Shown here: piece after piece, positions 1 to 54,085 of the stretch | How the letters are laid out: every line of letters starts with the position of its first letter | Position numbering within the stretch: the stretch's first letter is position 1 | DNA from: Candidatus Omnitrophota bacterium | Lineage (GTDB): Bacteria; Omnitrophota; Omnitrophia; Omnitrophales; Aquincolibacteriaceae | Assembly (NCBI GenBank): GCA_043803685.1 | Contig: JAZDJU010000010.1 | Coordinates: forward strand, 1 to 63,370 | DNA length: 63,370 nt | Direction: 5' to 3' | The notes under the pieces: generated by a model | What the model was told of the DNA's origin: nothing | Seen by the model: only the letters and a program-made list of their open reading frames with translations | The model's database searches: none | Position numbers and translations under genes: made by a program

Positions 1-4
1 AGGC

Positions 5-480
5 TTGCATGCGGAAGTGGCGCGTCTCAAGGAACGGATCCTGGATGTGCTCGCCAAGAGCCCGGATGAAAAAGAGTATGTCGCCGCCACACGCAAGCTC
101 TCCCTGCTCAAGCGTCTATTCAGTCTTGAAATGACGCGTTCCGAGTACGAAGAGTTGCGGAATCTGCCTAGTTTATCCAAAGAGCTTGCGGTGGGACTAC
201 AGACTACAGACCAGAGACCAGAGACTAAAACGAAAGGCCTGCAGTCTTCAGTCTCCAGTCTTCAGTCTATTTTCGCGGATGCAGTCGAGTTTTACGAGAC
301 TGCCATCGTCCGCGAAAACAAGATGTTCGCCAACGCTCTGAAGAAAATGGACGAGCGGAAAGAAAAGAACGCCGTGATCGTGACCGGCGGTTTCCACGCC
401 GAAGGTCTCAAGAAACTTGCCGCTTCGCAGGGGTGTGCCTACATGCAGGTCACGCCGCGGATCAACGAGATCTCGAAACG
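5..480 (+). other. Domain of giant ORF: C-terminal part of a TraB/GumN/Tiki (EreA/ChaN-like) fold
   Basis: RENKM (311-325) followed by AVIVTGGFHAEGL (GGFH at 386-397) resembles the RNxxM...hhhGxxH-xGL signature. The rest of the domain lies outside the window. Confidence 0.5.
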
Positions 481-3400
481 CGATCATGAGATCTATCTTC
501 GCTCCATTTTTGGTGCTCGCGATTTTGAATCGTCCCAGATGGGCCAGCCGTTGATCGAAGACGCCTCCATGCGTCAGATCCTTGGTGCGAAGTTGGGTAG
601 TTGGCTTGCTTCCATCCGGGAACTTGTGAAGGGTCTTATTAATTCCGCTCCCGTCCTGGATCGGGCGTCACTTTCATCCGCTCTTTCGAATTCTTCCTTA
701 TTTGGCAACGTAGCCGCAGTTCGCTCGGAAGTTCGCGCCTCGCAGACATTCCTTTACGAGGCTCATGGTGTCCGGATCCATGATCCGGAATTATCCCAAG
801 CGGCCGGCCAGAATCAAATGGCGGAACTTGGTGAAATGCTTGAGGGTGTTGACAATCATAAGATCGCTAGCAATGTGGCCATGCAGCATTTTGCGGAAAT
901 AGCGTCAACATATCCCCGTTCTGTTCGGCAAGCTTTGTCGTTGGAGATCAGTTCCTCTATGCAGTCGCTGGAAGAGGACCCCAGCGGCAACAACGAAACT
1001 GAATTGAATGTTCTGCGCGCAAAGCGAAGGCTGCTGTCGGAGCCCGAATCTTTCGCGACTTCGGCGATCGCCAATCGCTCGGAAGTGCGTAAACTTGGGG
1101 AAGCGGAATTCTATTACAACGCCCATGGGAGCCGGATCCATGATCCAAAGCTAACCCAAAAAGCTGGCGAACAGCAAATGGCGGCGCTTAAAGAGATCCT
1201 CGAGGATGTTGACGGGAACACGATCCAAAGCTCTGAGGCCATGATCGATGTCGCAAAGAGGGTGGCGGAATACAGCCCTTCAGTTCGGAAAGCTTTGGCA
1301 GCGGAAGTCCTCGCTTCCATGGATGTGCTGGAAAGCGGCGCACTGCGTTCTGACAAGACTCAGAGGGAAGTTTTGGTCATGCAGCATCAGCTGCTGACCG
1401 CGGCCGAATCTTTCTTCATCACGGAAACCAGGAAGGCCGCCAGCCGCTCGGAAGTGCGTCAGCTAAAGGGATCAGAATTCTATTACAACGCTCATGGGAT
1501 CGAGATCCATGATCCAAAGCTAACCCAAAAAGCTGGCGAACAGCAAATGGCGGAGCTTAAAAAAATTCTCGAAGACGTTGACGGGAATACGATCCGAAGC
1601 CGTCAGGCCATGATCGATGTCGCGAAGAGGGTGGCGGAATACAGTCTTTCTGCTCGGAAAGCATTGTCAGCGAAGGTTCTCGCTTCTAGAAGGGAACTGG
1701 GAAGCGGCGCGTCTCCTTCTGACAAGACTCAGATAGACGTTTTGGCCGAACAGTATCTTATTCTGATTAGACCCGATTCTTTCTTTATGCAGGAAACCAA
1801 GACGGTTGCCCACCGTCCGGCAGCGAGTGTGCAGGCTATTAAAAAAGCTTTTGGCGCTTATAAGCCTTTTAGCGTGGAGGCCTTTGCTTCCCATTTTAAG
1901 GTCACGGCGGAGGATGCCCGGAAACAACTGGAGAAGATGTGGCGTGCCAGCGACAACATGGACAGGATCAAGAAAAACGGCGCGTATCTTTATTTGTATA
2001 GTCCGATCAGTGTCGCGGTCCAGATTGGGCCGGACGTGAGGCCCGAGGATGTGGCGGATGCTGCGCGAGTGGTGATCAACCATTCTGAAACCAAGGAATT
2101 TTTGGGTGTCACAGCCGAGAGCGCGAGGAAACAGTTGGATGAATTCCTTGCCGCCGGATTCAAAGTGGTTTTGGCGTTCGGCGATTTTCCTGTCACTTTG
2201 ACCAAGGATGGAAAAACAACGGATTTCGAAGCCATGGGGCTAAGGAAGTTTCCGACGGACCTTAAGGCGATTACAGACAAGTTCATGACCCAAACCCTGA
2301 AGTCGAAGGACAGATCGTACGAAACCCTGCGAAAGTTATATCAGGAAGCTGAGTTTATTAGGGAGGCTTCTATTGACCAGCTCATAGGGCAGTTCGGGGA
2401 ATATCTGAAATTGTTTGATTTTAATGAAGAAGAGTTTAGGAATGCTTCGGATCTCACTGCCAGCTTGAAGAAGGAGCATGATCTGAAGGCGAAGATTATT
2501 TCAGAGATAAGCACGAAAACAGAAATCGAGTATGAAATTGGAATTTTGTTTTCCGGGTTGAAGCCCGAAGACGTCAGGGATCTCATTAAGAAGGCGTATG
2601 AGCCGATCGAGGGGATCAAGACGGTTGCTATTTCTGAGAAACTGGCGGAATTCCGCCGGGCTTATACCGTTCAGGCGATCGCTAAGGCTGCGGGAATGAG
2701 CGAAGATCAGGTTGCGGTCCTTTACGGCGGGGGCGGGAATGTGAAGAATTTTGCCGGATTAAAAAAGGCTGGATATGGAGGCGCTTTTATCGGGAGAGCC
2801 TCAGCGCTCGCGAAGGCTGAACCCGGCAAAGATTCAACGGCCAATATCTCTTTTGCCGCGCAGGAAACGGGTGAGAGACTCACTACGATCTATAACGCAA
2901 AATCAACGCGTGCGCCATCGCCCGCCGAATATATGAGCGCCTACGCGGAACGTGGCGTCAATACAGAAAGCGGAGTGAAGATCATTCATGCCGTGAGCCG
3001 TCTTGATTATCGCGCCTGGCAAAGAGAGCTTTCCGGAGAAAAGGTGAGTTCGTTGTTTGAGGATGTCAGTCAGGTTGCGTCCCGTCCACAAGTCACGATC
3101 GTTGCCGGTGCGACGGAAGCCACGCAAGGGATTGGCGCGTATACGGCGCATATTCCTGCTGAGTTTTTGCGTGAAGCCGGAGTGACCCAGGCACTTGTCG
3201 ATCGGACAAAGCCGTATGCAGTCAAGCAGACGCTCAATCTGATCAACGCCGGAATTACGCCGGTTGTGTATGAGAATTGGGAAGGTGTCGCAGAATTTTT
3301 TAAAGCTCTTGGAGAAGAAAATTTAGGCAGCATCGTGGAAATGAATACCGCCGGCATATCCGGCCTGCGGATCACGCCCATTAACGCCCTCCGGCAATTT

Positions 3401-6400
3401 CAAGGCCAGCATCAAGGCGGAGCTGTGTCCAACCGTTCGGAACTGAGAGCGGAAGTGCTGCCGGAAGCGAAATGGATCGAGATCGCTGCCGACGAAGTGG
3501 CGATCAAGCGCGCTTTCGGGACGAATGGGATCCGTTCGGACGATATCGAGATCGACGGCCAGCGGCGCATTGCTGCGGGGACCGCAGACGTGCTGGCGGC
3601 TCAGTGGCGCAAGGCCCATCCGGGGACAGAATTGCCGTGGGTGATGGTGGGATTTGATCCTCGTCCGCAGGGCGATAATGGCTTTACTCCGGGCGAGATG
3701 AGCGAATCCAAAGCCGTCGCGGAGGTTTTTGCGGCCTATGGTTTCAAGGTGTTGTTCGTTCCGAAGGCTGTCGCGGCGCCTTTCATGATCTCGGCGTCCG
3801 GCGAGAACGTGCACCCGAGGGATATTTTTGCCGCCGTGATGAGAACGGCGAGCCACAACGAAGTGGTGGACCCGAAATCCGGCAAGCTGGTGTCCGGGTT
3901 TAAGTTGTTCATGTGGAATGCCCCCGCGGCGGACAGCTTTACGGGACTTATTTCCGCGAAGATCAATGACGCGGAATTTTCTAAAGAAGTGCCGGTGCTG
4001 AACTTCGATCAGGCGGTCATTGAAGGAAAGATCGTGGTGTCAAAAGATGGCGATAACGACGATCCGGATACCGTGGAATTCCGGCGCATGCAGAAAGCCT
4101 TTGATCTCAAAACGATCGGAGACAAGATCCGGGCGAAGTTCCCGGCTTTCAAGATCGCGCTCAATACGATGAATGGAGGCATGTCCCAGTTCGGCCCCCG
4201 CGTACTCCGGGCGATGGGTATTATCAACAATAATAAAGGCTTCTTGGCGTTCAACACGAAGCTCATGAACGATCCGTCCATGAAATCCCAAATGTTGGGT
4301 TGGGTGGAATATCAAGATGCGAATACAGGTGAAATGAAGAGAGTTCGTTTCGCGCCGGATCCGACGCGGGCCTGGATGCGGGGCAAGGATTATCAGGATT
4401 TCGTGGCCCAGGATCCGATGAAGACCCTCGCTCTTTTGATCGACGGGGACGCGGATCGCTTGGTGGCGGAACTCGGCAAAGAGATCATCCCGAACGAGAT
4501 CGGCATGCTCGCCGCTTATTATCTGGCGAAGTACAAAGGTCAAAAGGGGCACATTGTGCGTACGGTGCCGACGACGGGCGGGTTGGACGCGTTGGCGCAG
4601 GCGCTCGGACTCGGGAAGGTGGATGTGACTCCCGTGGGCTCAAAATGGTTTGCGGGTCCAAATAAATATTATGACAGCAATCTAAACGATGTCCTTGTGG
4701 CTGTGGAAGAGAGCGGCCACATTGTTTTCAACAAGAAAGGACAGCTCTTCTTTGATCATTCCATTGGTCTCGCGACGCTCATGCTCGAAATGATGGCTGA
4801 GACGGGAAAGACATGGCAGGAATTGTCGGACGAGATGTGGGCGTTCATTGAAGAAAAGACCGGACAAAAGCGGATCGCGACAGTGCGTGACGGGATCAGC
4901 AAAGAAGATGGCGCCGAGAATTATTATGCTCTCGCGTTGCGTCTCGGTAACCCGTCAGAGGATACGTTTCGGCGTGAATTTGCGACGAAAATGGAAGCAA
5001 CTCTCGCCAAGGCGGGAATTCCGTGGAAGGTTACGAATATGGATATAGCCGACGCGGGCGGCGCCCAGCTTCAGTTCGAAGGCGGGCGGAAGGTGTTCCC
5101 GCGAAAATCAGGAACGGACGGCAGTGTTCGTCTCTACGGCGAAGTGCTCGATACAGAGCGCGATCTGGTGCCTGTCCTGATGAAGAGCATGCGCGAAGTG
5201 ATGGATTTTTTTGTTTCCGCGCAGCGTTCGGAGATGAGAAAAAAGACGTATTTGGCCTCAGCGGCCCTTGGGATTCCAGAGATCGGTAAAAACCTTGCCT
5301 ATTCCGCGGGAGCGGCACTCAGAGCGGTGTTTTGGCCAAATATTATCGATATGAGAAAACAGGGAAAGAACGCGATGGTTCGTAACGACATCCCTTCAGC
5401 CAAAGGCGGAGCTGTGTCCAGCAAACGCTCCGAGGTGCGTGAAGGGGTGCTGCCGCGCGTTGATACGCCGAAGACCCCAGAATGGAAACAATTACGCGCA
5501 TTTGCCAAAGAAATGAAAAAGAAGGCGAATGCTCTCCGGGAACTTTTCCGGAATGATCCTGAGCGGGTGTCAAAGCTCACGATGAATTTGCGTGAGGATG
5601 TTGCATTCGATTTCTCCAAGCAGCGCATTACCGGACCGATTCTGGATACTCTTGTAGCGCTCGCCGAACGGACGGGTGTTTCCGAAAGCATTGAGAAAAT
5701 GTTCACGGGCGCCAGGATCAACGAGACGGAGAACCGCGCGGTGCTTCACGTGGCCCTTCGTAACGTAAAGCGCGATCCGGAAAGCGGCAAGCTCGTCGCA
5801 GCCAATGGACCGATTTTTGCGGACGGAAAAGATGTGATGCCTGGCGTGATCCAGGTGCTGGAACAGATGGAAGCCTTCGTTCAATCGATCCATTCCGGTA
5901 CGCGAGTGGGCTATACCAAAAAAAAGATCAAGAATATTGTCAATATGGGGATCGGAGGTTCGGATCTTGGCGGCAAAATGGCGACTCGTGCGCTCATTCC
6001 TTACCAGTTCAAGAGGAAAGATGGTGTGAACGTTTACTATGTTTCCAACGTGGACGGAACGGACTTTGCCGAAGTGGTCAAGAACCTGGATCCCGAAGAA
6101 ACGATGTTTGTGATCGCTTCCAAGACTTTCACAACAGCCGAAACGATGCAGAACGCGCGATCCGCCAAGGATTGGATCCTCCGGCACTATGGAGTTGATA
6201 CTTCGGATCAGAAAAAAGCAGACGCGGTGGTGAATGCGCACTTTATCGCTTTATCAACCGCTGCAAAACTGGTGCAGGAATTCGGGATCACTCCGGATGA
6301 AGAGCATATGTTCCCGTTCTGGGACTGGGTTGGCGGCCGTTATTCGGTGTGGTCCGCGATCGGATTGCCGCTTGCGACCTACATCGGATTCGATAATTTC

Positions 6401-9400
6401 CTGAAATTTCTCGAGGGCGCGCGATATGTCGACGAGCATTTCAGGACGAAGCCTCTTCGCGAGAACATTCCGGTGATTAAGGCATTGCTCAACATCTGGA
6501 ACGGAAATTTCCTCGGGGCGAGGTCTTTTGCTGTATTGCCCTACGATCAATATTTGAGCCTTTTCCCGGAATTCGCCCAGCAGTTCTTTATGGAGAGCAA
6601 CGGGAAGATCGCAAGCCGGCTCGGTCGATTCGTGCGCTATATCACGGGGCTTATCCTGTGGGGAGCCGCCGGGACGAACGGTCAGCATTCCTTCTACCAA
6701 CTCCTCCATCAGGGAACCCATCTGATACCGGCGGATTTCATCGGTGTCCTCAAGACCCATAATCCTTTGCCGGGGCATCACGAGGAGCTTTTCTCCAATG
6801 TGCCCGCCCAAACGGAAGCTCTTGCTTTTGGCGCTACCAAAGAAGAGGTCAAGGCGTTGCTTGAAAAGGACTTGAAGTACAAAGGACAAGACATTGATTG
6901 GCATGCCGCACAGCAGACCTTCCCTGGGAACAAGCCAACGACTACGATCGCGTTGGATGAAGTCAATCCCGAAACGTTGGGTATGCTGGTGGCCCTTTAT
7001 GAGCATCAGATCTTTGTCGAGAGTGTGGTCCTGAACATCTTTGCGTTCGATCAGTGGGGAGTGCAGCTCGGGAAAAAGGTTGCGCTTAAAGTGCGTGCTT
7101 TCTTGACTGGGGAAAGACCTCCGGAAGAAATCGCATCCGCAGGTATTTCCGCTTCGGGCGAGTGGCTGATCCGCAGATGGCTTACGCGTGGCGGTGGTTC
7201 TCAGGCGGGGGTTGAGTCACAAGGCGGAGCTGTGTCCGAGCAATTCGAGACGCGTCAGCAGGAAAGCCGGGAAATAACAAAAATGCGGCTGGCTTCGATC
7301 CTTAACGGCGTGACCGGAGAAAAGGCGGGCGATAATTTTTTCATGGGACTTGTTGAGGGTTGGGTGAAGGAGTTTCCTGGAGATCTTCGGAGCGAGGTTG
7401 CGGCGGAGATCTCGGCTGCCATGGGAATGCTGGACAAAAGACCTTTCGATGAAACTAGGCTGAAAGTTCTCGAGAAGCAAAGTGAGTTGCTTTCGAGCAA
7501 ACTTCCCGTTGCAGTAAAACAAGCTGACGCGAACCCATCACAAGTTGAGGAGCTTCAAGCATTCCTGAACGAACGGGTTACTCCGTCCACGATCGGGGTT
7601 TCGATGCTGATGAAGGCTGTTGAGAAAGATATGGAAAAATTCGCCCTGCCTTCTCGGGCAGTTCTCCTGGTGGAAGTCAAGGCTGCTATAGAGGAGCAGG
7701 AGCGCCTGCGTGTTGTCGGGACCCAACGGAGTATCATGGCTAAGCAGATTGAATTTCTCTCGCAGGGATCCGCGGATGTCGCCACCCGCTCGGAGGTGAG
7801 GAAGATCGTTGTAGCTGCGTCTGTCGTGGGAGCTCCGGAGATCGGAGCAAACCTCGTCAAGACCATTGTCCGGGAAGGCGCCGTTGTGTCTGGAGCGTGG
7901 AAGGGGAACGAACAGTTTCCTTCCGATGACGTGCAAGTAGTTTCCGGCGAGGGAAAACGTGACCAGAAGTCTAAGGGAAGCAAGCGCTCCGAGGTTCGGT
8001 TTGATGCGGGAAGGGAACCTTCGCCGTACGGTCCGGATGCTTCTCAGGAAGGGTTGAGGCCTCTTTATGAACGGATCGCTTGGGCGCGTGAGCATGCTCC
8101 GAGCTATACCAGGATCAAGAGGATCTACGCGTTTTCGGATCAAAAGCACGGTATGGATCCCAAGGACGCCATTTCTTTCGGCGTTGTGCTGGAAGGTAAT
8201 ACTTCCGCTGACAGCGATGATGTTCTAGTGATCAATCAGAACGCGTCCGTTATGGGCGGTATTTCTGCCGGAGTGCTTGAGCCGGGGACGCATGGTAGCG
8301 TTGCGGAAGCCATTGAGTTCTTCAACAAGAACGTCGCAGACAGCTTGGTGGGTTTGAATGTCTCCCGGCCGGACGAGATCACTGCGAAGATCCTTGAGAT
8401 CGACGAGACCTTACGCAATTTGGCGCGGAGGAGCGATTTGTCGAGCACGAAGACGAAGCAGCGCTTCTCCTATATCGGAGCGGAGATCTCTATCGGTGTG
8501 TCCATGGCCGCCACGTTTGCTCTCGCAGAGGCGTTGGGTGTGCCGACCGAGGTCGTTCTTAACTATCGCTACAATGAATACACGCTCTCGACGGGTTTAG
8601 CGAAAGCGGTTCGCCCGATGAGCATTCCCGTGAATTACAGTGTGGTTTGGGAAGGCGGCAAGCACGGCGTGGCCAAGTATTTAAGCGAACTGATCAGCGA
8701 GGGGGTCATCCAGGACGGTAGCCGTTTCCCGGAAAGATTCAAGGATCAGGCGCTGATCGCCAAGAAGGACAAGAGCATTCTCCTGGCGGCGGTTCCTCCT
8801 CAAGAGCTCCAGATCATGGTCCTTGCTCCTGAATGGGAACAGGCTCGTCTGATCGGGATCAAGTTGACCAAGCTTTATCAGGCAAAACTGAAAGAGCATG
8901 GGATCAAGACCAAGTATGGCGCGGAATCCGGCTTCACAACGGAGCAATTGCGCGACAAGGCTGGAAACCTGATCGATCTGGATCTGGTGTTGGATATTTT
9001 GGGTGAGGCCGTGGACGCTTTGCCGGCTAATGAGGCAAAGTATGTGCGCTATGCGTTGGATATTGCTGCTTCCGAGATGTATATCCCGGAGATCGACATG
9101 TATTACGTCGGTCCCAGCGCGGCCAAGAATGCCGATGGTTTGGTGACGAACGAAGAGTTCACCCAGTACAAGTTGGCATTGTTCCAAAAGTACGGTCGCT
9201 TTATCTCTGTCGAAGATTGGGCCACCGAAGATGAAATAGATCATTGGGAAGGTGCAAAGGCCATCATGGGTTCCATGATCCAGATGGGGGATGATAACAC
9301 TGTCTCACGGGCTGACATGATCAAGAAATTTTCTGCGGTCATGAATGCCCATCTCCAGAAGCCGAATCAGTCGGCTGAAGAGCATGCAGGGATCGAAGCG

Positions 9401-19922: not shown

Positions 19923-21551
<1,629 letters not shown>

Positions 21552-21956: not shown

Positions 21957-23711
<1,755 letters not shown>

Positions 23712-25245: not shown

Positions 25246-27795
25246 TTATTCCGGGAACCTGGAGCGGTCGAGCTCGAAGATTCTGACGCAAGTCCCGCCG
25301 GATAGGGATCCTTCGCTAATAAACGGCTTAAAAAAAGAGAGGCCTTCCGCTTGTAGGTAATACAACCGGAAGAGCATCGACCGGATAAGCTTCGCGTCTG
25401 CCATGACCGCATAAAGCGATTTCCCGTCCTGGAAAAGAAGGACCGAAAGATCCGTCAAAGGGTCGGCATAGATCTTTTCGACCAACTGTCCCTGATCGAG
25501 ATAGAAGAGACTCACGGGCCGGGTGATCCGTTTTTTGGATGGCTCTGCGATCAGCGTATCCTTGATCGCCCAGTTCACCTTCACACAAGGATCGGCGCCG
25601 AATGTAAGTTCGTCTCCTTCTTGACTCACCAGCGGCAAGGCGGGGCGATAATCCAGGAATTTCCCCGTGATGTCTAAAAAAACCTGGAGATAACTCGGAG
25701 GCGTCTTGTTTCCCAACCGGCCCCAAACAGCTTCCAGGCCCGTCTTCTGCCGCGTTCGCCATGCTTCTGCTTTCCTGAAATCCCACCGGGCGAACCGGGT
25801 CAGAGCAACATTTTTTTCGATCAAATCGCTGTCGAGAGAGACGTACATGGGAGGCAGCGCTTCCTTGCCATGGGTCCTGTCGAGAAACGCATTTTTCTGC
25901 TGCGCGGTCATGGACGAAGGCAGCGCTGAAAACGCTTCTTTTCTCCCAAGTCTCACGATCTTCAGGATGAGCTCGACCGCATCCGCGGTTTTCATGCCGG
26001 ATCTTTCCAAAAATTCAGCCGCGTTGTCCCTGCGGGTGTCCAGCATGCGAAGGATCCCGGCGGATAAATCCTCATCGTCGGTAAAGAACGCTCGCGCGAG
26101 CCAATACATCACGTGAGTGTTCTGAGTGCCTCCGTCCACGGGAACCCGGCGACGGCCGATCGCGCTGATAAAATAGCCCGGCGACCATGAGCTGTTGACG
26201 ATCGCGTCTTCCGGCGTCCGGGTCCTCAACTGCTGGAACGCCCGGAACCAAACATCGTCCATGATGAGCCGGCTCTCGCGAGCGGAGTTATGCGCGGCTC
26301 CAAGGATCGGCGTAAAAAAGATCAGGGACATCAAAAGGATCGCTGCGGGTTTCCTGCATTTCGCGAGAAAATCCGGAGCCGGGCTATTCCATGGCCACGG
26401 ACCCAGGAGCCGCGACAGATTTTCCGCCGCAAAACCCACGAACACCGACAGCGGAAGCGCGAGTAGAACGGCGAATCTCACCGACTGAAGCGTCATCAAA
26501 AAAAGGGGCATGCCGACCAGAACAAAGAAAAGGATCCTGAAAAGGCCGTATGGCTCCTTGCTGAGAAGAACGCGCCTTGTCTCGAGCGCGATCCCAAGGA
26601 TCGCAAAACTGAAAGTGACATAATTGCCTGTCTTGTGGATCAACCCGTTCACCGAAGTGGGCATGATCTCGCCCAGGGTGGGCAAGATGCTCGGCCAGAG
26701 ATCGAATTTCAAAAACATGAAATCCTGAAACGCTCCCCACGCCATGCGGATCGAATCGACCATGCCGGCCGGCGTAATGAACAGAGCCAGGAACACCATT
26801 GTCCCTGATCCATACCCCCCAAGGAATCTGAAAGCAGTCCGGACCACCGGAGGAGGTTTCATCTTGCCAAGCAGGGTCATGATCCCAGCGCTCACCAGAA
26901 GGCCGCCGGAGGTCAGAACGAAAATAAAGAGCCACCCATGCCAGAAAAGAACATAAAGACCCGTCAAGCATGCCGCGCTCAGCGCATAAAGCAGTATGTT
27001 TTTCCCTTGTCTCATCGCCATAAGAACGAGGGAAAGGATCGCCAGAGGAAAAAGGTGATTGTAAGGATCCGTGTCGTACCAGCCTAAGGTGGTTCGCTGT
27101 ATAAAGATCGGCGAAAGCGCCAAGGTCGTCATGCCGAAGATCGAGGCGAGAAGACCCAAGCCGATGGCCCTGGAAAAGAGCCAAAAGACGAACGGGATCA
27201 AAAAGACCAGAAAAAGCGATCCGTACGCAACCGCTTCGACCACCGTAATGTCAGGGAAAAACCGGGAGAGGCATTTGTAATAGAAAGCGCCCACGTAGGG
27301 ATGAAGCAAGAAAGGCTCCCAAAATCCGACAGGCGCCATCCCGAGCGGGCTTAGGACCTTCCACGATCTTCTGGCCCCGCTCTGGCCGGTCTCCAGCACT
27401 TGTTCAGTCTGGTAGAGGTAATGGTAGGGGTCCGCTTCAGACAAGTATTTCAATCGCCAACTCCAGGGAACCCCCTTGGAGAGGCTTTGCGCCACGGTTT
27501 CGATCGCCGCGTTATATTGAACCGGATCTTTCCGGATCGCCTGCTCTGCCAGTTCCGCTAATTTCTTTTCTCTCTCACGCTCTGACGCTTCCGTGATTTC
27601 TCGTTTTGGGGTTTTTGATAACTGGTCTTTGATCCGGTTTTCAACGACTCTCTTGGCGATCTCGCGAGGTGATCCAAAATGAAGAAAGGGTCCGCCATGG
27701 ATCGCATAAGTCCGGAAATAGATGGCGAAAAAACTGACGACAAGGATTCCCATCAGCGCGGTGATCCCATAGACCCGCGTTCTTCTAGATCGCAT
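25246..27795 (-). CDS. STT3/PglB/AglB-family oligosaccharyltransferase-like protein
   Basis: EADPYHY, GWYDTD and TLGE motifs, many TM helices, and a periplasmic TPEDAIVNSSWSPGY..DGGTQ segment. Confidence 0.85.
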   Translation of the reverse strand: MRSRRTRVYGITALMGILVVSFFAIYFRTYAIHGGPFLHFGSPREIAKRVVENRIKDQLSKTPKREITEASEREREKKLAELAEQAIRKDPVQYNAAIETVAQSLSKGVPWSWRLKYLSEADPYHYLYQTEQVLETGQSGARRSWKVLSPLGMAPVGFWEPFLLHPYVGAFYYKCLSRFFPDITVVEAVAYGSLFLVFLIPFVFWLFSRAIGLGLLASIFGMTTLALSPIFIQRTTLGWYDTDPYNHLFPLAILSLVLMAMRQGKNILLYALSAACLTGLYVLFWHGWLFIFVLTSGGLLVSAGIMTLLGKMKPPPVVRTAFRFLGGYGSGTMVFLALFITPAGMVDSIRMAWGAFQDFMFLKFDLWPSILPTLGEIMPTSVNGLIHKTGNYVTFSFAILGIALETRRVLLSKEPYGLFRILFFVLVGMPLFLMTLQSVRFAVLLALPLSVFVGFAAENLSRLLGPWPWNSPAPDFLAKCRKPAAILLMSLIFFTPILGAAHNSARESRLIMDDVWFRAFQQLRTRTPEDAIVNSSWSPGYFISAIGRRRVPVDGGTQNTHVMYWLARAFFTDDEDLSAGILRMLDTRRDNAAEFLERSGMKTADAVELILKIVRLGRKEAFSALPSSMTAQQKNAFLDRTHGKEALPPMYVSLDSDLIEKNVALTRFARWDFRKAEAWRTRQKTGLEAVWGRLGNKTPPSYLQVFLDITGKFLDYRPALPLVSQEGDELTFGADPCVKVNWAIKDTLIAEPSKKRITRPVSLFYLDQGQLVEKIYADPLTDLSVLLFQDGKSLYAVMADAKLIRSMLFRLYYLQAEGLSFFKPFISEGSLSGGTCVRIFELDRSRFPE

Positions 27796-37592: not shown

Positions 37593-38192
37593 ATGGAGAA
37601 CAGTGCCAGACTTCGGGGATTTATGGAACGATTAGGGTCTTTGGATTCTCTGAATATCCGCGAAAAGAAACATTACTCCCATATGCCGGAGCACTGGAAA
37701 CTCCAGCCGTTCTGTTGTTTTTCGGACATTTCGGAGGAGGAGATCTATTACATGACCTCCGAAGATCCTGGGGTCTCCAACCTGGAGGTGTTTCGCAAGT
37801 CTCGCGCGTTCTCCCTTTATCTTCTTAACAAGAAAGGGGAACAGATCTTTTCCTTTGAAAAGCACACCGGATTATTTTCCGACAAATTAGAGGTTTTTGA
37901 CGCGTCTGAAGATCTCCTGGGTTATGTTGAGAAACAGAAAACGCATTTCAAGATCTTGGATGCCGGCGGCCATGTGGTGGATGTCATTGAAGCTTCTCCC
38001 GAGGATCCCGAGACTTTTTATATCCGGAAAGGGACTGCGGTGGTGGGGAAGCTCAGCAGGCGGCCGTGCCGGCTCGCCGAAGAGGATATCCCCAAACGGG
38101 ACCATTTTGGCATTGTGTTTCCCTTTGATGCGGACACGCCGGAGAAAGGCGTCCTTATCGGAGCGCTTTTCCTGATCGATCTGATGTTCTAG
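37593..38192 (+). CDS. Scramblase/LURP-one (Tubby C-terminal-like) family protein
   Basis: LEVFD...LLGYV, F.I.D, and C-terminal DHFGIVFP..D...K.VLIGA.FLIDLMF. Confidence 0.65.
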   Translation: MENSARLRGFMERLGSLDSLNIREKKHYSHMPEHWKLQPFCCFSDISEEEIYYMTSEDPGVSNLEVFRKSRAFSLYLLNKKGEQIFSFEKHTGLFSDKLEVFDASEDLLGYVEKQKTHFKILDAGGHVVDVIEASPEDPETFYIRKGTAVVGKLSRRPCRLAEEDIPKRDHFGIVFPFDADTPEKGVLIGALFLIDLMF

Positions 38193-43845: not shown

Positions 43846-45252
43846 TTAGACCAGGATGCGGGTGATGAAAAAGCCGGGGAAAATGCCCAGGGCCAACACG
43901 CCCAGGAACAGGATCCAGAGAGTCACGGACAGAGCTCTGGAAGGAGATGGAAAGGCTGGTCCTGTCGGAGGCGTCAGGTACATGAGACGGATGACCCGGA
44001 AGTAATAGTAGGCCGCGATCACGCTATTGACCGCCGCGATGATCGAAAGTGTGAAAAGTTTCGCATGGATGGCCGCCGCGAACACGTAGTATTTTCCGAT
44101 GAAACCCGCGAGCGGCGGAAGCCCGGCCAGGGAAAGAAGGAAGACGGTGAGCATGGCCGCGGCCACAGGCGAGCGTTGGGAAAGTCCGGAGTAGCTCTCC
44201 AGAGAGCTGTTCCGGGTCTCGCCCTCGACAAAGAGAACGACGGCAAAGGCTCCAAGGTTCGTTAAAAGATAAGTAAGAAGATAGATCAGGACCGCGCTAC
44301 GTCCCAGGATGGAGAACGCCGCGAGGCCCATGAGGATATAACCCGCCTGCGCGATGCTTGAATAGGCCAGGAATCGTTTGATGTTCGACTGGGACACGGC
44401 CGTGATGTTGCCGAGGGTCATCGTCAAGATCGAGAAGACCACAAGCATGGGGCTCCATATGCTGTAAAAATTCAGGAAGATCATGTCGAGTACGCGCGTC
44501 AAGACCGCGAATCCGAGCGCTTTGGGAGCGACGGTGAGGAAGGCCGTGACCGGGGTCGGAGCGCCTTCATAAACGTCCGGTGCCCACATATGAAAAGGCG
44601 CCATGGAAATCTTGAAACCCAGTCCGACAAAAAAGAAAAGAACGGATACGATCGCCAGAGGTTTGAACGGCGCGTAAAAGAGAGCATTCCCGATCACCGG
44701 GAGCTCGAGCGACCCGGCAATACCGTAAAGGAGGGACATGCCGTAAAGCATGATCCCCGAGCACACACTTCCGAAGAGGAGATATTTGACAGCGGCTTCC
44801 TTGGACTTCGGGTCGTTCTTCAGGAATCCCACAAGAAGGTACGAGAGCAGGGAAACGAATTCAATACTCATAAAGATCATGAGTAGGTTATTGGCCGCAG
44901 CGACCGTGATGAGGGCGAAAGCCATGAAAAGGAAAAGGCCGTAGAATTCGCCGTCATAGCGGTTCTTGAGCGGGGCGTAACCGAGTGAGATCATAAGCGT
45001 GATCCCCACAGCTCCCAGCGCGAGGTAGCGGAAAAAATGCGCGAAGGCATCCAGTTGGAACATGCCGAAAAAAAGTGGCAAGGGTTTCACGGGGGCTTGT
45101 ACGAGACACAAGGCGAGCACGATCACAAGCAGGGCGAATTCCCCGACGAGTTTCTTCTGTTTCAGAAAGAAATCCATCGTAAAGGCGACAAATGCGCCGC
45201 CCAGAAGAACCAGTTCCGGGATGAAATATTTTAAACTTTCAACAGCGTTCAT
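43846..45252 (-). CDS. nuoN: Complex I subunit N
   Basis: EAAVKY, FKISMAPFHMWAPDVYEGAP, KRFLAYSSI. Confidence 0.95.
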   Translation of the reverse strand: MNAVESLKYFIPELVLLGGAFVAFTMDFFLKQKKLVGEFALLVIVLALCLVQAPVKPLPLFFGMFQLDAFAHFFRYLALGAVGITLMISLGYAPLKNRYDGEFYGLFLFMAFALITVAAANNLLMIFMSIEFVSLLSYLLVGFLKNDPKSKEAAVKYLLFGSVCSGIMLYGMSLLYGIAGSLELPVIGNALFYAPFKPLAIVSVLFFFVGLGFKISMAPFHMWAPDVYEGAPTPVTAFLTVAPKALGFAVLTRVLDMIFLNFYSIWSPMLVVFSILTMTLGNITAVSQSNIKRFLAYSSIAQAGYILMGLAAFSILGRSAVLIYLLTYLLTNLGAFAVVLFVEGETRNSSLESYSGLSQRSPVAAAMLTVFLLSLAGLPPLAGFIGKYYVFAAAIHAKLFTLSIIAAVNSVIAAYYYFRVIRLMYLTPPTGPAFPSPSRALSVTLWILFLGVLALGIFPGFFITRILV

Positions 45253-45271
45253 TTTCTATCTCGATTTTTAT

Positions 45272-45352
45272 GTCATTCCCGCGGAAGCGGGAATCCAGAC
45301 TGGATCCCCGATAACCCTAAAGGGCTACTTCGCTGAAGCATTCGTGGATGAC
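45272..45352. repeat. REP-like element, dRS3-like core, second copy
   Basis: gtcattcccgcggaagcgggaatccag-ac-tggatccccg...ggatgac. Confidence 0.75.
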
Positions 45353-45379
45353 GATTTTTGAACTTGTTTTGGAGGCCAT

Positions 45380-46858
45380 TTACCCAACCTTGATTGTTTT
45401 AAGTAAAGCATCGAGCGTCGGGATCATGTAATCCAGGATGATCCTCGGATAAAGACCGATTCCGAGGATGAGGACCATGAGCGGGACGAGCGTGAGAATC
45501 TCCCGGAAATTGATGTCCGTAAGAGAGTCCCACTTTGGATTGAATTTTCCAAGCAGGACGCGTTGGATCATATAGAGAAGATAAGCCGCCGCGAGAATGA
45601 TCCCGATCGTGGAGAGTCCGGTGACGACCTTGGAATATTGATAAGAGCCTAGGAGCGCCAGGAATTCGCTGATGAATCCGGAAAGACCCGGAAGCCCGAG
45701 CGATGCGAGCGCGAAAAAGATCAGAAACCCCGAATAAGCCGGTACTTTTGCGCCGAGCCCTCCGAAATCGTTCAGGTCACGGGAATGAGCTCGGTCATAA
45801 AGAACGCCGACCAGCAAGAAGAGCCCGCCCGTGATGGTTCCGTGCGTGAACATCTGGAGCATGGCTCCGCGGAAACCGTTCGCGTTCAGGGCCGCGAGGC
45901 CGAGAAGGACAAATCCCATGTGACTCACGCTCGAGTAGGCGACCATTTTCTTGAAATCCGTTTGCGCGAGGGCCACAAAACCACCGTACACGATCCCGAT
46001 GATGGCCAGGACCGCCATCGCCGGTTGGAACCAATGCGTGGCTTCCGGGAAAAGAGGATAGCTGAAACGGAAAAATCCGTAGGTGCCCATCTTAAGGAGG
46101 ACGCCCGCGAGGATCACGCTGATCGGCGTTGGAGCTTCCACGTGCGCGTCCGGCAGCCAGGTGTGGAACGGGAAGATCGGCACCTTGATCGCAAAGCCGA
46201 GAAAGAACGCCATGAAAACGACCTGTTGGAAAAGAAGGCTCCGGGGCATGCCGACCAGCAGGGTCATGTCGAAGGTGCGCGGCGCGGCGGCGAAATAAAC
46301 GCCAAGGATCCCGAGGAGCATAAAAAGACTGCCCGCAAGCGTGTACAGGAAAAACTTGATCGCGGCATACTCGCGGCGCGGCCCGCCCCAGATCCCGATC
46401 AGGAAATACATGGGGACTAGCACGACTTCCCAAAGGACATAAAAAAGGAAAAGGTCCAGAGCGAGGAACGTTCCCATCATGCCGGTCTCAAGCAGGAGAT
46501 ACAAGAAGTAATATTCCTTTTCGCGGCCGTCTTTCACGCGGACGTGGGGGAAGGAAGCGAGGCACGCGATGAGGGAAATGATCGCTGTGAGGAACACCAT
46601 GGGAAAGCTGATCCCGTCCGTCCCGAGAAGGTATTGCACGCCGAACTGCGGGATCCAGGACGCGCGTTCCATCATCTGGAAGCCGGCTTGCGCGGGTTGG
46701 AAGATGGTCAGAGCGTAACAGGCGAGCGCCATGACGACGCCGGTGGTGGCGAGCGCGATCCACTTGATCGAAGACGCGGCGCTTTTAGGCACGAACAAGA
46801 TCGCGAAGGCGCCGATCAAGGGCGTAAAGATGATCCAGGAAAGAAGATGCGATGTCAT
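45380..46858 (-). CDS. nuoM: Complex I subunit M
   Basis: AAIKFFLYT, PFHTWLPDAHVEAP, AYSSVSHMG. Confidence 0.95.
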   Translation of the reverse strand: MTSHLLSWIIFTPLIGAFAILFVPKSAASSIKWIALATTGVVMALACYALTIFQPAQAGFQMMERASWIPQFGVQYLLGTDGISFPMVFLTAIISLIACLASFPHVRVKDGREKEYYFLYLLLETGMMGTFLALDLFLFYVLWEVVLVPMYFLIGIWGGPRREYAAIKFFLYTLAGSLFMLLGILGVYFAAAPRTFDMTLLVGMPRSLLFQQVVFMAFFLGFAIKVPIFPFHTWLPDAHVEAPTPISVILAGVLLKMGTYGFFRFSYPLFPEATHWFQPAMAVLAIIGIVYGGFVALAQTDFKKMVAYSSVSHMGFVLLGLAALNANGFRGAMLQMFTHGTITGGLFLLVGVLYDRAHSRDLNDFGGLGAKVPAYSGFLIFFALASLGLPGLSGFISEFLALLGSYQYSKVVTGLSTIGIILAAAYLLYMIQRVLLGKFNPKWDSLTDINFREILTLVPLMVLILGIGLYPRIILDYMIPTLDALLKTIKVG

Positions 46859-46950
46859 AATGACTCCTTTTGAGTTCGGAGTTTAGAGCGGGGAGTTTGG
46901 AGTAAAAGCTTTTGGCTCTATCTCCCGACTCCGAACTACAGGCTCCGAAC

Positions 46951-48897
46951 TTATGCTAGTTTCAATTCCCAAATGAGAAAAACCATCAATACAAGAAACA
47001 CCAACAGTAAGTAATTCTGCACCAATCCCGTCTGAAGGCGCTTGGTGATCGAATTTAAAAAATGGACCAGCGTCCCCATGAAGTTCACGAGGGCATCCAC
47101 GATGTAAGTGTCGATCCATTGTTTCACGCCGCTTAGGAACATCGTTCCTCGTCCCGCGCTGTTCACGGCGCCGTCGATCACCGCCGCGTCAAAGCCGAAC
47201 AGAACCCGGCCGAGCGCGACGAAAGGTCTGATGATGTAAGTGGAGTAGAGTTCATCGAGATAGAATTTGTTGAACGACAGGCGGTAGAGGACAGGGAAGG
47301 TCTTTGCGACGGCTCCCGCCCAGTGTTTTTGCTTCAGATACATGATCCCGGCGAGTGTGATCCCGAGAACTGCTACGGCGATCGAGCAGGCCATGACGAA
47401 AGCGGAAGGCTCATATTCCGGATGATGGACCATGTGCGCCATAAATTGTTGGAACCAGTGATGCATGAAAGGAGACCCGGGGATACCGATCACGGCGGAG
47501 CCTATCGCCAGACACCAGAGCGGCACGGTCATGAGGGCCGGGGATTCATGGGCATGGACCTTGGCGTTCCGGGCCGCGCCAAAAAAGGTCAGGAAAATAA
47601 GACGGAACATATAGAAGGCGGTCATGAAAGCCGTGAGAAGGAGAATGCCGAAGACCCAGAAATGGCCGGACCCAAAGGCCGCGAGCAGGATCTCGTCTTT
47701 GGACCAGAATCCGGAAAGCGGTGGGACGCCGGCAAGGGCCAGACTTGCGATGATGAAGGTGACCGCGGTGTGCGGCATTTTCTTGAAAAGTCCGCCCATC
47801 TCACGGATGTCCTGGACATGCGTTCCGTGGATCACGCTTCCGGCGCCGAGGAAGAGCAGGGCTTTGAAAAAGGCGTGCGTGATGAGATGGAACGTTCCCG
47901 CGCCAAGCCCCGAAAGCCCGAGCGCGGTCACCATATAGCCGAGTTGTGAGATCGTGGAATAAGCGAGAACGCGTTTGATATCGTTCTGGGTTAGCGCGAT
48001 AAAGGCGGCCATGAACGAGGTGATCGTTCCAATCGCGATCACGACCGGAAGAACATTCGGGATGGCCATGAAAAGGGTGAAAGACCGCGCGACAAGGAAA
48101 ACGCCGGCTGCCACCATCGTCGCGGCATGGATGAGCGCGCTGACAGGTGTCGGGCCTTCCATGGCGTCCGGCAACCAAACGTGCAAAGGGAACTGCGCGG
48201 ACTTTCCGATCGTACCGCAAAAAATGAGGAGCGCCGCGACCGAAAGGAGGCCCGTGTTCAAAGCTGTGTGAGCAACGTGGGCTCCCGTAAAGATCGTATT
48301 CATCTCCGAGAAATTCAACGTGCCGATCGCTGAGAAAAGCGTGAGAAAACCGAGGAGAAAACCGACATCGCCGACGCGTGTCGTGAGAAATGCCTTCAGG
48401 GAGGCGTTCGCCGCCGAGGGCTTCTCGAAGTAAAAACCGATCAAAAGATAGGAACAGAGTCCCATGATCTCCCACGCCATGAAGAAGAGGAGGTAATTGT
48501 CCGAAACGACGAGCGTGAGCATGGCGGACATAAAGAGAGAAACATACGCGAAGAACCGGCTGTAGCGCGGATCGCCGTGCATGTAGCCTGAGGCGTAGAC
48601 CTGGATGAGCGTGCCAACGATCGTGACCATGAAAAGGAGCGTCGCGGAAAGAGGGTCCATCAAGTAGCCGAACTTCAGCGGCGTCGTGCCGAGCATAAGC
48701 CAGGTCCCTTGATGAGCGAAATGCGCGCCCTGAAAGACCGCCCAACAGACCGGTAGCGAGATCGCGCAGGCGAGAGCGCTCGTAGCGATAGAACACAAAG
48801 CCGCGCGTTCCTTGAGCCAGCGGCCGGCCAGGATATTTGCCACAAAGGCTATAAAGGGCAAAAGAGGTACGAGGAAGATCTGATCGGCGGTTACCAT
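46951..48897 (-). CDS. nuoL: Complex I subunit L
   Basis: [42 protein letters not shown]. Confidence 0.96.
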
Positions 48898-49205
48898 TTC
48901 AGTAAATGGACCTCATCGGCTTGAACGGTTTTCCGGACCCGGTAAAGGGCGAGTACGATGGCGAGTCCCACGGCGGCCGCGGCTGCGGCGATCGCGATCA
49001 CAAAAAGAGCGAAGATCTGTCCCGTTTCGGGGGAAAGCGACGTGTATTTCGAGAACGCGATCAAATTGATATTGGCGGCGTTCAGCATGAGCTCGATTGA
49101 GATCAAAATGCCGATGATGTTCCGCCGCACAAGTGCGCCGTAAACACCGATCGCGAAAAGGAACAAGGAAAAGACGAGGATGTGAGAGAGAGGAAGGAGG
49201 GTCAT
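48891..49205 (-). CDS. nuoK: Complex I subunit K
   Basis: [21 protein letters not shown]. Confidence 0.93.
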
Positions 49206-49726
49206 TGGGACTTCTCTTCCGGATCTTTCTTGGCGATGATCACGGTTCCGATCAACGCGGCGATCAGGATGACCGAGATCACCTCGAACGGGAACACATA
49301 AGTCCCCATCAGGGCTTTGCCGAGTCCCATCACCGAAACCTTGGCTTTAAGCGCGGTCGGGGTTACGGGCCACGGGGTTTTCAGGATCAGACCTGTGAGC
49401 AGTACCACAAACCCTGCGAGGCCCGCGATCGCGAGCGGGCTTTGCGAATTATTCTGGCGGACGGTTTTCCCCATGAGATGCTCGGTGAGCATGATGGCGA
49501 AAATGACAAGTGTGACCACCGCGCCGACATAAAGAAGGATCTGGATCGCGGCAAGATATTCGGCCTGAAGGACTACGTAAAGGGCTGCGGTCCCGATCAA
49601 TGCCGCCGCGAGGCACAGCGCGCAGTGGAAAAGATTGCGTAGCGTGACCACGCCCAAGGCGAACACAAGGATCGCGGCCATCACGGCGTAGGTCCCGAAT
49701 TTCGCGGCTATTTCCAGGATCGGCAT
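49202..49726 (-). CDS. nuoJ: Complex I subunit J
   Basis: [19 protein letters not shown]. Confidence 0.93.
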
Positions 49727-49729
49727 CGC

Positions 49730-50902
49730 TTAGCTCTCCAAAGGATAATGACGCTGTTCAGGGATGAACGTGCTGTTGAGTTTGACCAAGCCCCACAGTG
49801 AAACCGCCAGAACCGGGATCGAGATCAGCCATCCCGTCAAGTGCGGTACGAAATGCCAAAGTCCGGTCAAAAGAATGTTGATGAGCGTGAGCGGCAGAAG
49901 GAATTTCCATGCGAATCCCATCAGATGGTCCACGCGGAACCTCGGGAACGTGCCCCGGAACCAGATCATCACGCAGATCAGGACGAATGTTTTTCCGAAG
50001 AACCAGAGCCATGAGGGAAGGAACGGACCCTGCCAACCGCCGAGGAAAAGTGTCGTCGCGATGCCGCAAAGCGTGAACGCGTTCATGTACTCGGCCATAT
50101 AAAAGAGAGCGAACTTCATGCCGCTGTATTCGGTATGAAAACCCGCCACAAGCTCCGATTCCGCTTCCGGAAGATCGAACGGCGGACGGTTGCATTCTGC
50201 CGTCGCGCAAAGAAAGAAAACGATGAATCCCACGATACCCCAGGGCGTAAAGATAAACCAGTGCAGGTCATAGTCGCCGGTCTGCGCGAGGACGATCGTG
50301 TTGGTCGCGAGACTTTGGCTCATCATAATGGCCGGGACGACGGCCAAGGTCATCGGGACTTCGTAGGAGATCATCTGGGCCGCTGTGCGCATTCCGCCCA
50401 AGAGTGAATATTTGTTCCGCGAAGCCCAGCTCCCCATGAAGATCGGAAGGATGGTGATGGATGAAACTGCGATGAAATAAAGAAGTCCGATATTCAGGTT
50501 GGATGCGGTCATGCGCTCGCCGAAAGGCACCACCAGGAAAAGCATGAGCGCGGGCACCACGATCGCGATGGGCGCGAGGAGATGAACGATCTTGTCGGCG
50601 TTCGCGGGGACAATGTCCTCTTTGGTGAACATCTTGATGCCGTCGGCGATGGGCTGTAAAAGCCCCCATTTGCCGACGCGGTTCGGGCCGTACCGGTTCT
50701 GGATGCGGCCGATCAGTTTTCGTTCAAGAAGCGTCAGGTACATCATGATCACCGGTCCCATGCACAGGATTGCGACGCCGCTGATCGTGATCGACGCGAG
50801 CACCACGATCCAATCGGGGAGGAATCGCCCCAGAAGGGCGAGGATCCACGCCTTGGCCGTTACGAAGATCATGTCGACGTAGAATTCGATGCCTCGGATC
50901 AT
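49730..50902 (-). CDS. nuoH: Complex I subunit H
   Basis: ERK..RIQNRYGPNRVG, PFDLPEAESELVAGFHTEYS. Confidence 0.96.
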   Translation of the reverse strand: MIRGIEFYVDMIFVTAKAWILALLGRFLPDWIVVLASITISGVAILCMGPVIMMYLTLLERKLIGRIQNRYGPNRVGKWGLLQPIADGIKMFTKEDIVPANADKIVHLLAPIAIVVPALMLFLVVPFGERMTASNLNIGLLYFIAVSSITILPIFMGSWASRNKYSLLGGMRTAAQMISYEVPMTLAVVPAIMMSQSLATNTIVLAQTGDYDLHWFIFTPWGIVGFIVFFLCATAECNRPPFDLPEAESELVAGFHTEYSGMKFALFYMAEYMNAFTLCGIATTLFLGGWQGPFLPSWLWFFGKTFVLICVMIWFRGTFPRFRVDHLMGFAWKFLLPLTLINILLTGLWHFVPHLTGWLISIPVLAVSLWGLVKLNSTFIPEQRHYPLES

Positions 50903-51492
50903 TGGGGCCCTTGTGCCGTAGTCTGCCCTTGCCCGCCAGCGCTTTGTGGCGGGGGCGGCGGAACAACCGCCTTTTTCTTTTCTTCTGCCGCCTTGCGTTT
51001 CTGGTCAATGGCGGAGGCCAGGGTCGGACGGACCTTCTTGAAATATTCGTTCGATTTCAAAAGCGCTTCCTTGTGGCGAACGAGACCTACTTGACGTTCT
51101 GGGGCCGTCACTTCAAAGGCATGGTCCATGAAGATCGAATCGAACGGGCAGACCTCTTCACACATGCCGCAGTTCATGCAAAGTCCGTAATCCACATCGA
51201 AGACTGCAGGTTTTCGCGTCGGCTTGCCTGCGGCATCGATTGCCATCTCAATATGAATACATTTGGTCGGGCATTCCCGCTCGCAGATCCCGCACGCCAC
51301 GCAGCGGATCTTCTCTGCGGAGCCGTCATGAACAAGAAAAGGGAAGTTCCTGAAATTCTCGACCGCTTTTTCGCGTTCCTCCGGGTACTGGACCGTGAAG
51401 ATCCCGCCCTCGTCCAGTTTCCGGAAATAAGAGGTCAGGAAATTCTTGAACGTGACCCCCATGCCTTTGAGCACTCCCATACCGAAGATCAT
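50899..51492 (-). CDS. nuoI: Complex I subunit I (2x[4Fe-4S])
   Basis: [31 protein letters not shown]. The start overlaps the nuoD stop. Confidence 0.93.
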
Positions 51493-53336: not shown

Positions 53337-53337
53337 A

Positions 53338-54069: not shown

Positions 54070-54085
54070 AGGATTCCTTAGGATC

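Follow-up and report, generated by a model that had tools for sequence, protein, structure and literature searches.

Does the long open reading frame (ORF) at the edge of a Candidatus Omnitrophota contig encode one giant protein, or a chain of ordinary proteins that is cut apart, perhaps by its own first domain? The stretch of DNA analysed here (the window) covers 63,370 nucleotides, positions 1 to 63,370 of contig JAZDJU010000010.1 (GenBank assembly GCA_043803685.1). The ORF occupies 2-11872 of the plus strand (3956 codons in genetic code table 11, with the stop codon at 11870-11872) and is open at its 5' end, where the window edge cuts it. A preliminary description of this DNA proposed that the ORF begins with part of a TraB/GumN/Tiki-like domain, a candidate processing protease heading a chain of cargo delimited by RSEVR motifs. 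We find that the ORF encodes several separate proteins in one frame, split by a conserved short site, one of the marks of a self-processing polyprotein. The best single explanation of the observations, which we infer and hold tentatively, is that the N-terminal domain (called here the cap) is a protease that cuts at these sites, the junctions.

The junction motif, RSE[VLM]R, occurs nine times in the ORF, starting at amino acids (aa) 241, 359, 482, 1145, 1742, 1809, 2596, 2662 and 3724. Composition predicts 0.012 copies, and no more than 1 appeared in any of 2000 shuffles (mean 0.015). The wider pattern R[STA]E[VILMA]R is absent from all other stop-to-stop frames of at least 100 aa in the window. 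The codons used for Arg, Ser, Glu and Val differ among the nine copies, and selection has therefore acted on the peptide and not on the DNA; a DNA-level element, considered as the origin of the motif, was rejected on the grounds of this synonymous variation. The sequence flanking the motif is nearly information-free. Two further places look like decayed junctions. One is HRPAA at aa 601-605 (1802-1816), at the end of a helical repeat whose two preceding copies are followed by RSEVR. The other is GGAVSEQFETR at aa 2408-2420 (7223-7261), which can be compared with GGAVSxRSELR or GGAVSxxRSEVR at two other junctions.

Between the junctions lie recognisable enzymes. Glucose-6-phosphate isomerase (PGI) is matched by NF001211 with an E value of 9.3e-204 and 677.9 bits (cut-off 492) over profile positions 5-525 of 544, and its predicted native N-terminus is 3 aa downstream of a motif. 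A phosphoglucomutase/phosphomannomutase-like protein is separated from the preceding motif by 19 aa and directly abuts the following one (0 aa), with position 2 of the domain I profile at module residue 21. The match to triosephosphate isomerase (PF00121, E 4.3e-14) covers only profile positions 144-236 of 245. An enolase-like region is matched by PF00113 (E 9.3e-15) and PF03952 (E 7e-5) and scores 69.9 bits with TIGR01060, far under the cut-off of 300. For the C-terminal domain of the ORF there was no Pfam or NCBIfam family match, and its AlphaFold2 (AF2) model, built from 4 sequences, had a predicted local distance difference test score (pLDDT) of 37.7, too low for use.

The part of the cap that is present in the window comprises about 240 residues of a domain of about 600 and ends at the first RSEVR. 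That this segment belongs to a conserved domain is beyond chance: a 243-aa window fragment matches nine longer proteins with E values of 1.5e-41 to 3.7e-59 and 44-55% identity, and two of the nine are labelled Candidatus Omnitrophota by their source. The family profile aligns to window aa 1-244 with its positions 359-587 of 591, so the domain runs up to the first motif, to nucleotide (nt) 721. Since relatives extend about 360-390 residues further upstream, the TTG at nt 5 is not a start codon. The limits of 5 and 480 given in the preliminary description must therefore be abandoned, while its remark that only the C-terminal part of the domain lies in the window agrees with an ORF open from nt 2. 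The two strings that it quoted do precede the first RSEVR in frame 2 of the plus strand, FYETAIVRENKM at aa 97-108 (nt 290-325) and AVIVTGGFHAEGL at aa 124-136 (nt 371-409), and the His that it singled out at 395-397 is H132, the candidate catalytic His. R104 precedes H132 by 28 residues. A protein-pattern scan of a collection of genome contigs for the upstream part of the same gene gave three loci with 27-48% identity, none identical.

To describe the complete domain we used P0008, a 649-aa relative consisting of the cap only, as the query for phmmer; the residue numbers H88 to H505 below follow this protein. The 1.84 billion cluster representatives contained 7001 matches at E<=0.001, of which 4579 reached 1e-10 or lower and 707 reached 1e-30 or lower. 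Most of the best 150 have 1,000-7,800 aa and are matched at their N-terminus. The cap is complete in 147 of the 157 sequences examined and starts within the first 60 residues in every one of the 147, as expected of a domain that heads the chain. Ten residues are invariant in all 147 (H88, E116, G117, E394, F470, Y471, R477, G502, G503 and H505). H88 and E116, the N-terminal His and Glu that the preliminary description wished to see in full-length relatives, are separated by 28 residues in 146 of 147, and R477 and H505 by 28 in 144. The order of elements in the relatives is a charged N-tail, a hydrophobic helix, IHIQxAHGNYxAQKNI, LLEGA, a long helical region, FYxTAxxRExxM and VTGGFHxEG, the last two being elements that the window retains. 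All 144 relatives that start with Met have a positive N-tail (mean 2.6 K/R) followed by a 17-residue hydrophobic stretch, with an AxA-like site in 140. The signal-like N-terminus for which a check had been suggested is thus a regular feature of the family.

In Pfam and NCBIfam no model reached its cut-off for the cap, and the sole match in the ESM Atlas was an Omnitrophota cluster at 0.89. As an observation on the query itself, P0008 comes from a contig of 1.78 Mb and stops three residues past its first motif, RAELR; a truncated gene would explain this, and so would a natural stand-alone form that acts in trans. A search for proteins of nearly the same length gave nine at E<=1e-20, mostly on short contigs or with frameshift-like tails.

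The relatives share a common layout, namely the N-terminal cap, variable cargo delimited by motifs and a C-terminal domain ending in Ala. The motif exists in two dialects. In 155 family proteins, 104 contain only R[STA]E.R (R type), 24 only [AGS][AS]SLG (G type), 10 both and 17 neither. Proteins with both usually carry one stray copy of the second, those with neither are mostly short or truncated, and one long protein of the latter group has 11 copies of R-x-E-L-R with a different second residue. The second dialect, in the form [AG]-[AS]-S-L-G and without R-x-E-h-R, was seen in P0067, P0068, P0073, P0123 and 20 other relatives. At least two motifs of one dialect are present in 124 of the 147 relatives with a complete cap, which bears out the predicted co-occurrence of the domain with motif arrays. 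The first motif directly follows the cap (median position aa 619 in the R type, 602 in the G type) and the last is about 220-320 aa from the C-terminus (about 260-290 aa in the G type). The 847 modules between motifs have a median length of 234 aa (quartiles 111-493). Their cargo varies from protein to protein and includes HEAT repeats, GHMP kinase, isocitrate lyase, RNase T and MraZ as well as histidine kinases, glutamate dehydrogenase, UDP-glucose dehydrogenase and glucan phosphorylase. As judged from sequence comparison, the cap family is a very large and uncurated set of bookended, motif-punctuated ORFs in the Omnitrophota.

In the C-terminal domain no residue but the last Ala is invariant, which leaves the architecture without an enzyme to rival the cap; an Ala C-terminus was counted in 104 of 154 relatives, among them AA in 48 and SA in 47. 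Such ends resemble the ...LAA of the ssrA degradation tag, and by this analogy may be a sorting or degradation signal. In two loci, two motif-bearing giant ORFs stand head to tail (L001, 2-8554 and 8837-17401; L002, 2-7882 and 8057-20062), with the upstream ORF ending in ...IAA or ...KSA just ahead of the cap-headed one.

What kind of domain is the cap? Members of the TIKI superfamily are built on a central, mostly parallel beta-sheet with flanking helices, as in 3B55 (Bcr135), 2G5G (ChaN), PMT and HopBA1. Their catalytic pairs are His-85/Glu-113 in Bcr135 and His-3902/Glu-3930 in RRSP, and in RRSP a conserved basic residue, Arg-4001, stands ahead of His-4030 (PMC6254334). The cap has counterparts of each of these residues. 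H88 and E116, which in the relatives lie in the region upstream of window nt 1, match the His-Glu pair, with the 28-residue spacing of both Bcr135 and RRSP. Window R104 corresponds to RRSP R4001 and window H132 to H4030 in the C-terminal half (both invariant in 147/147), at a spacing of 28 compared with 29 in RRSP. Window E5 (E394) is another invariant Glu, inside a helical insert.

In the AF2 model of P0008 (34 sequences; pLDDT 82.4, predicted template modelling score 0.76) strands and helices alternate, the six strands being at 66-72, 80-85, 112-115, 169-172, 496-501 and 519-525. Invariant residues are placed just past strands 80-85, 112-115 and 496-501 and on the helix preceding 496-501, and a further helix (503-515) follows that strand directly. 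In its signature the cap is like TIKI proteins in having a strand that ends in x-x-H, a Glu 28 residues on at the end of the next strand, a helix-borne Arg and a later G-x-x-H. PF04187 (ChaN/Tiki) weakly matches window aa 52-134 (E 0.002-0.005) and 10 of 34 family members at E<=1, always ending at the His of GGFH; PF18950 matches 6 of the 34. There is also a more general likeness, in that RRSP and Tiki are site-specific endopeptidases and TIKI members often have large appended domains, many of them being extracytoplasmic. We know of no TIKI-superfamily member that heads a polyprotein.

Three kinds of evidence suggest that the junctions are cut. The first is the position of export signals. The 155 proteins contain nine twin-arginine translocation (Tat)-like signal peptides, and seven of these lie no more than 25 aa beyond a junction, in a zone with 5.0% of all residues (binomial 2.7e-8). 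Two of the seven have Met as their first residue, immediately behind ASLG, and in two cases RSE.R is followed by a lipobox signal peptide. As such signals make sense only close to a free N-terminus, their location argues that the junctions are cleavage sites. Hydrophobic segments in general are weakly enriched after junctions (35 of 969; 18 of 978 for random positions). Examples of post-junction Tat (RRxF[LIV]K) or lipobox signals are found at aa 1776 of P0073, 3449 of P0123, 3075 of P0072, 1225 of P0083 and 1191 of P0099. The second is the strictness of the five-residue motif between information-free flanks, and the third the size of the modules, which is that of ordinary proteins. Both likewise argue for cutting.

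In the mechanism that we propose, the junction motifs would be cleavage sites and the cap a site-specific endopeptidase that cuts them, acting on its own chain and probably also on other polyproteins of the cell. Cutting would release proteins of ordinary size, which in the window would be glycolytic and sugar-phosphate enzymes. Taken jointly, cutting at the junctions and the cap as the cutter make up a reading that we would put forward with caution. When the cap (residues 55-615 of A2) was modelled in complex with a window junction of 50 aa, the score was 0.02 against a mark of 0.32, which speaks neither for nor against binding.

Several observations weigh against this reading of the cap, whose role as the cutter is deduced from sequence and models. 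Conservation fails at one published position, the first Glu of the 2His/2Glu set, which in RRSP is Glu-3900 and precedes the His by two residues. At the equivalent cap position, 86, the four commonest residues are T (44), E (23), S (18) and D (8) in 99 R-type sequences and D (14), N (4), T (4) and S (2) in 25 G-type sequences. Also unlike TIKI proteins, the cap has its core split by a helical insert of about 290-420 residues. All PF04187 matches are below the gathering cut-off (best 18.4 bits, cut-off 27.7). In a Foldseek comparison with the Protein Data Bank (PDB) no structure matched at E<=0.001; 3B55 had an E value of 0.3, template modelling scores of 0.17/0.25 and a probability of 0.41, the highest among the Foldseek PDB matches listed (46, with ranks to 50). 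Nothing relevant came out of searches of the PDB sequences with two profiles and one protein. The best match, a nucleolar protein (E 0.0019 over a helical stretch), was judged to be due to chance.

Comparison of the cap alignments (11 and 147 sequences) with E. coli YbaP and 12 or 90 of its relatives using hhalign gave probabilities of 0.2-0.3%, a weak negative given the low diversity of the TraB/YbaP alignment (effective number of sequences about 2). Only the GxxH strand was aligned or, in another run, an unrelated 24-column stretch. PF01963 (TraB/PrgY/GumN) appeared in no Pfam scan of the window fragment or the relatives. With no significant sequence or fold match to TIKI members, the TraB/GumN label is unjustified. 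What stands of the Tiki/EreA-type signature of the preliminary description is the set of H-E and R/GxxH residues with spacing like that published, and no significant structural match of the kind that it asked for was seen. The most that can be said from these comparisons is that the cap carries a TIKI-like signature in a new family, nearest to ChaN/Ere.

Other points against the cap as the cutter concern location and specificity. Its predicted export (144/144) is at odds with a cytoplasmic cargo and with Tat signals that imply cleavage in the cytoplasm. In four relatives 38-466 aa lie between a motif and the predicted end of an enzyme. The dialects do cluster on the cap tree (7 changes; shuffles needed 23, and none of 500 had so few), but this is uninformative because shared ancestry would produce it too, as would a protease encoded elsewhere. 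There are only three independent dialect pairs on supported branches, and no cap residue could be tied to dialect (p 0.5-1). Residue 481, considered as a dialect determinant, is Met in 84 of 99 R-type and Phe in 20 of 25 G-type sequences; with three independent pairs the comparison has no power and is not used as evidence.

Some of these points fit with a different cytoplasmic protease, encoded elsewhere, as the enzyme that cuts the junctions. The cap would then be an obligatory first module with another substrate, an exported or membrane-anchored hydrolase or binding protein acting, for example, on extracellular peptides or esters, or a holder of the chain. We consider this possible, if doubtful. 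A cap that is exported or anchored with its N-terminus inside, processing in the cytoplasm and dialects that follow ancestry are all expected from it. Many TIKI members are moreover not proteases, for example ChaN, the esterases of the Ere group and PMT, in which the catalytic motif is missing (PMC6254334), and for other Omnitrophota giants West-Roberts et al. (10.1101/2023.11.21.568195) propose C39 or S8 peptidase domains as the processors. It leaves unexplained, however, why a 600-residue domain with ten invariant residues should head 147 of 147 proteins. In addition, no protease family was found among the 48 other ORFs in the remaining 51 kb of the window, which lie downstream, and neither the window ORF nor the relatives scanned showed a C39 or S8 domain. 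Pfam scans of the window ORF and 34 relatives gave no peptidase family, the cysteine protease domain (CPD) of MARTX toxins not having been searched separately by name. Since both the cap and a protease encoded elsewhere would cut at the same places, the junctions themselves are probably processing sites.

It is unlikely, in our view, that the chain stays whole as a giant multi-enzyme scaffold, with the motif as a linker (for docking, as a hinge or as a modification site) and the two end domains as anchors. Several modules do contain more than one domain, the apparently decayed junctions occur without loss of the ORF, and the literature on Omnitrophota giants mostly assumes single giant proteins, a 2026 preprint (10.64898/2026.06.07.730766) naming 'multi-enzyme metabolic clusters' as one class in the part compared. 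An uncut chain could hardly make use of the Tat and lipoprotein signals that follow junctions, though; a strict five-residue motif with information-free flanks is typical of a protease site, and the cargo of the relatives looks too unrelated for one coherent machine. We regard it as very improbable that either the long ORF or the motif arose as an artefact, through mis-assembly, use of a wrong genetic code or a repeat at the DNA level. The gene is indeed cut by the window edge, but the frame runs open through 3956 codons, its architecture recurs in thousands of relatives from many sources, synonymous codons are used in the motif copies and PGI scores above its curated cut-off.

The arrangement can be compared with several known systems. 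In MARTX toxins inositol hexakisphosphate activates the CPD, a cysteine protease, which cuts after Leu in loose linkers. The likeness suggested in the preliminary description is a functional one: both are very long bacterial chains with several unrelated modules that are released by a protease in the chain, here a candidate. Fold, nucleophile and position differ, the CPD being downstream of the effectors while the candidate here is an N-terminal His/Glu hydrolase with strict five-residue sites and housekeeping cargo. Viral polyproteins combine an embedded protease with consensus junctions (for example, picornavirus 3C and potyvirus NIa) and share with the present case a single ORF, a short conserved junction, products of ordinary size and a protease in the same chain (again a candidate here). 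They differ in that the genes studied here belong to the chromosome of a cell, that a genome holds many paralogous polyproteins, that the cargo is not the same in different genes and that the bookends at both termini are conserved. Proteins of the gingipain type (RgpA/Kgp/HagA) have a signal peptide, an N-terminal protease, modules split by its own sites and a conserved C-terminal domain; unlike the cap family, they have a cysteine protease, adhesin cargo and a C-terminal domain for type IX secretion, and no sequence relation to the cap family was seen, although none was looked for.

The closest comparison is with the giant proteins of the Omnitrophota themselves ('Archaeovorins' and multi-enzyme metabolic giants), which come from the same phylum and have similar enzyme content. 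At 10-147 kaa they are larger than this gene, which has more than 3956 aa, and in the published parts compared they are described without a junction motif or a TIKI-like N-terminal domain. West-Roberts et al. (10.1101/2023.11.21.568195) report domains of triosephosphate isomerase, of glucose-phosphate isomerase, of fructose-bisphosphatase, of phosphoglucomutase/phosphomannomutase and of aldolase in giant proteins. They note that a predicted extracellular location conflicts with the function of sugar-phosphate enzymes, and that N-terminal regions mostly lack identifiable domains except for C39 or S8 peptidases. They also consider cleavage possible, at points that were unknown, which blocked structure prediction. 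Unknown protease motifs are named as an obstacle elsewhere in the Omnitrophota literature, in the parts consulted, and Seymour et al. (PMC10066038) describe giant ORFs as poorly understood. In the text of West-Roberts et al., as far as compared and with the supplements outside the comparison, there is no mention of TraB, Tiki, GumN or erythromycin, and the compared part of the 2026 preprint (supplements again outside) has no cleavage or motif wording. TraB is named in none of the three Omnitrophota papers compared. The papers searched contain no description of the cap or the junction motif, and a full-text literature search gave no paper on an Omnitrophota polyprotein.

Table 1. Features of the motif-punctuated ORF in the window (window positions in nt; invariant residues numbered as in P0008)
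Feature	Position	Strand	Evidence
Cap, C-terminal ~240 residues	2..721	+	Family profile; relatives with E down to 3.7e-59; PF04187 weak
Glu5, equivalent to invariant E394, in the helical insert	14..16	+	Alignment; 147/147 relatives
Phe97-Tyr98, start of the Arg-bearing helix	290..295	+	F470/Y471 invariant in 147/147
Arg104 of VRENKM, 28 residues before the His	311..313	+	R477 invariant in 147/147
Gly129-Gly130-Phe131-His132 (GGFH), end of a beta-strand	386..397	+	G502, G503 and H505 invariant in 147/147
Junction 1, RSEVR	722..736 (aa 241-245)	+	
Helical repeat module 1, 113 aa	737..1075	+	No family match; 47/102 identical to module 2
Junction 2, RSEVR	1076..1090	+	
Helical repeat module 2, 118 aa	1091..1444	+	80/117 identical to the next copy
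Junction 3, RSEVR	1445..1459	+	
658-aa module: third helical repeat, then partial triosephosphate isomerase (aa 849-938)	1460..3433	+	PF00121
Junction 4, RSELR	3434..3448	+	
Phosphoglucomutase/phosphomannomutase-like module, 592 aa	3449..5224	+	PF02878, PF02879, PF02880
Junction 5, RSEMR	5225..5239	+	
Mini-module, 62 aa	5240..5425	+	No family match
Junction 6, RSEVR	5426..5440	+	
Glucose-6-phosphate isomerase (aa 1821-2374), decayed junction, ~190-aa helical region	5441..7786	+	NF001211
Junction 7, RSEVR	7787..7801	+	
Mini-module, 61 aa	7802..7984	+	No family match
Junction 8, RSEVR	7985..7999	+	
1057-aa module: enolase-like (aa 2766-3161) and about 560 residues without assignment	8000..11170	+	PF00113, PF03952
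Junction 9, RSEVR	11171..11185	+	
C-terminal cap domain, 228 aa, ending in GRSA, and stop codon	11186..11872	+	Same placement in relatives

Some of the smaller modules in the table are related to each other. Three helical modules of about 115 aa stand in tandem (737-1075, 1091-1444 and 1460-~1830), with a weaker copy after PGI (25/82 identical). The two mini-modules (5240-5425 and 7802-7984) share K..[hydrophobic]..G.PEIG.NL and have motifs on both sides.

The remaining 51 kb of the window contains ordinary chromosomal genes. Two genes of Cpn60/TCP-1 family chaperonins lie close together on the minus strand (19926-21551 and 21960-23690). An ORF resembling STT3-type oligosaccharyltransferases (25249-27795, minus strand; PF02516, E 3e-16) and a scramblase-like ORF (37593-38189, plus strand; PF03803, E 1e-9) belong to groups that are uncommon in bacteria. 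A run of genes for subunits of NADH:quinone oxidoreductase (complex I) occupies 43849-54234 of the minus strand; other parts of the window encode two-component systems, a GGDEF-EAL protein and a glycogen-synthase-like protein.

Whether the giants of the Omnitrophota act as single proteins or as cut pieces is a question that the literature on them, in the parts consulted, itself leaves open. A strict motif in two dialects and a universal N-terminal hydrolase make it approachable by experiment, and for annotation and folding giant ORFs could be split at the motifs. In its widest form, which we regard as a doubtful if attractive extension, a sizeable part of the ordinary proteome of the Omnitrophota would be encoded as polyproteins, each with its own TIKI-like endopeptidase, a lineage-specific five-residue code, either R-x-E-h-R or A-[AS]-S-L-G, and a -[SA]-Ala end. 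If this is true, that proteome would include glycolytic enzymes, kinases, regulators and proteins exported by the Tat and lipoprotein routes, and with enzymes such as PGI inside these ORFs metabolic reconstructions would change. The cap would be a very large new branch of the TIKI-type hydrolases, in a new role. The famous giant proteins would be precursors and not giant machines, and a free-living or epibiotic bacterial phylum would be using a virus-like strategy of gene expression.

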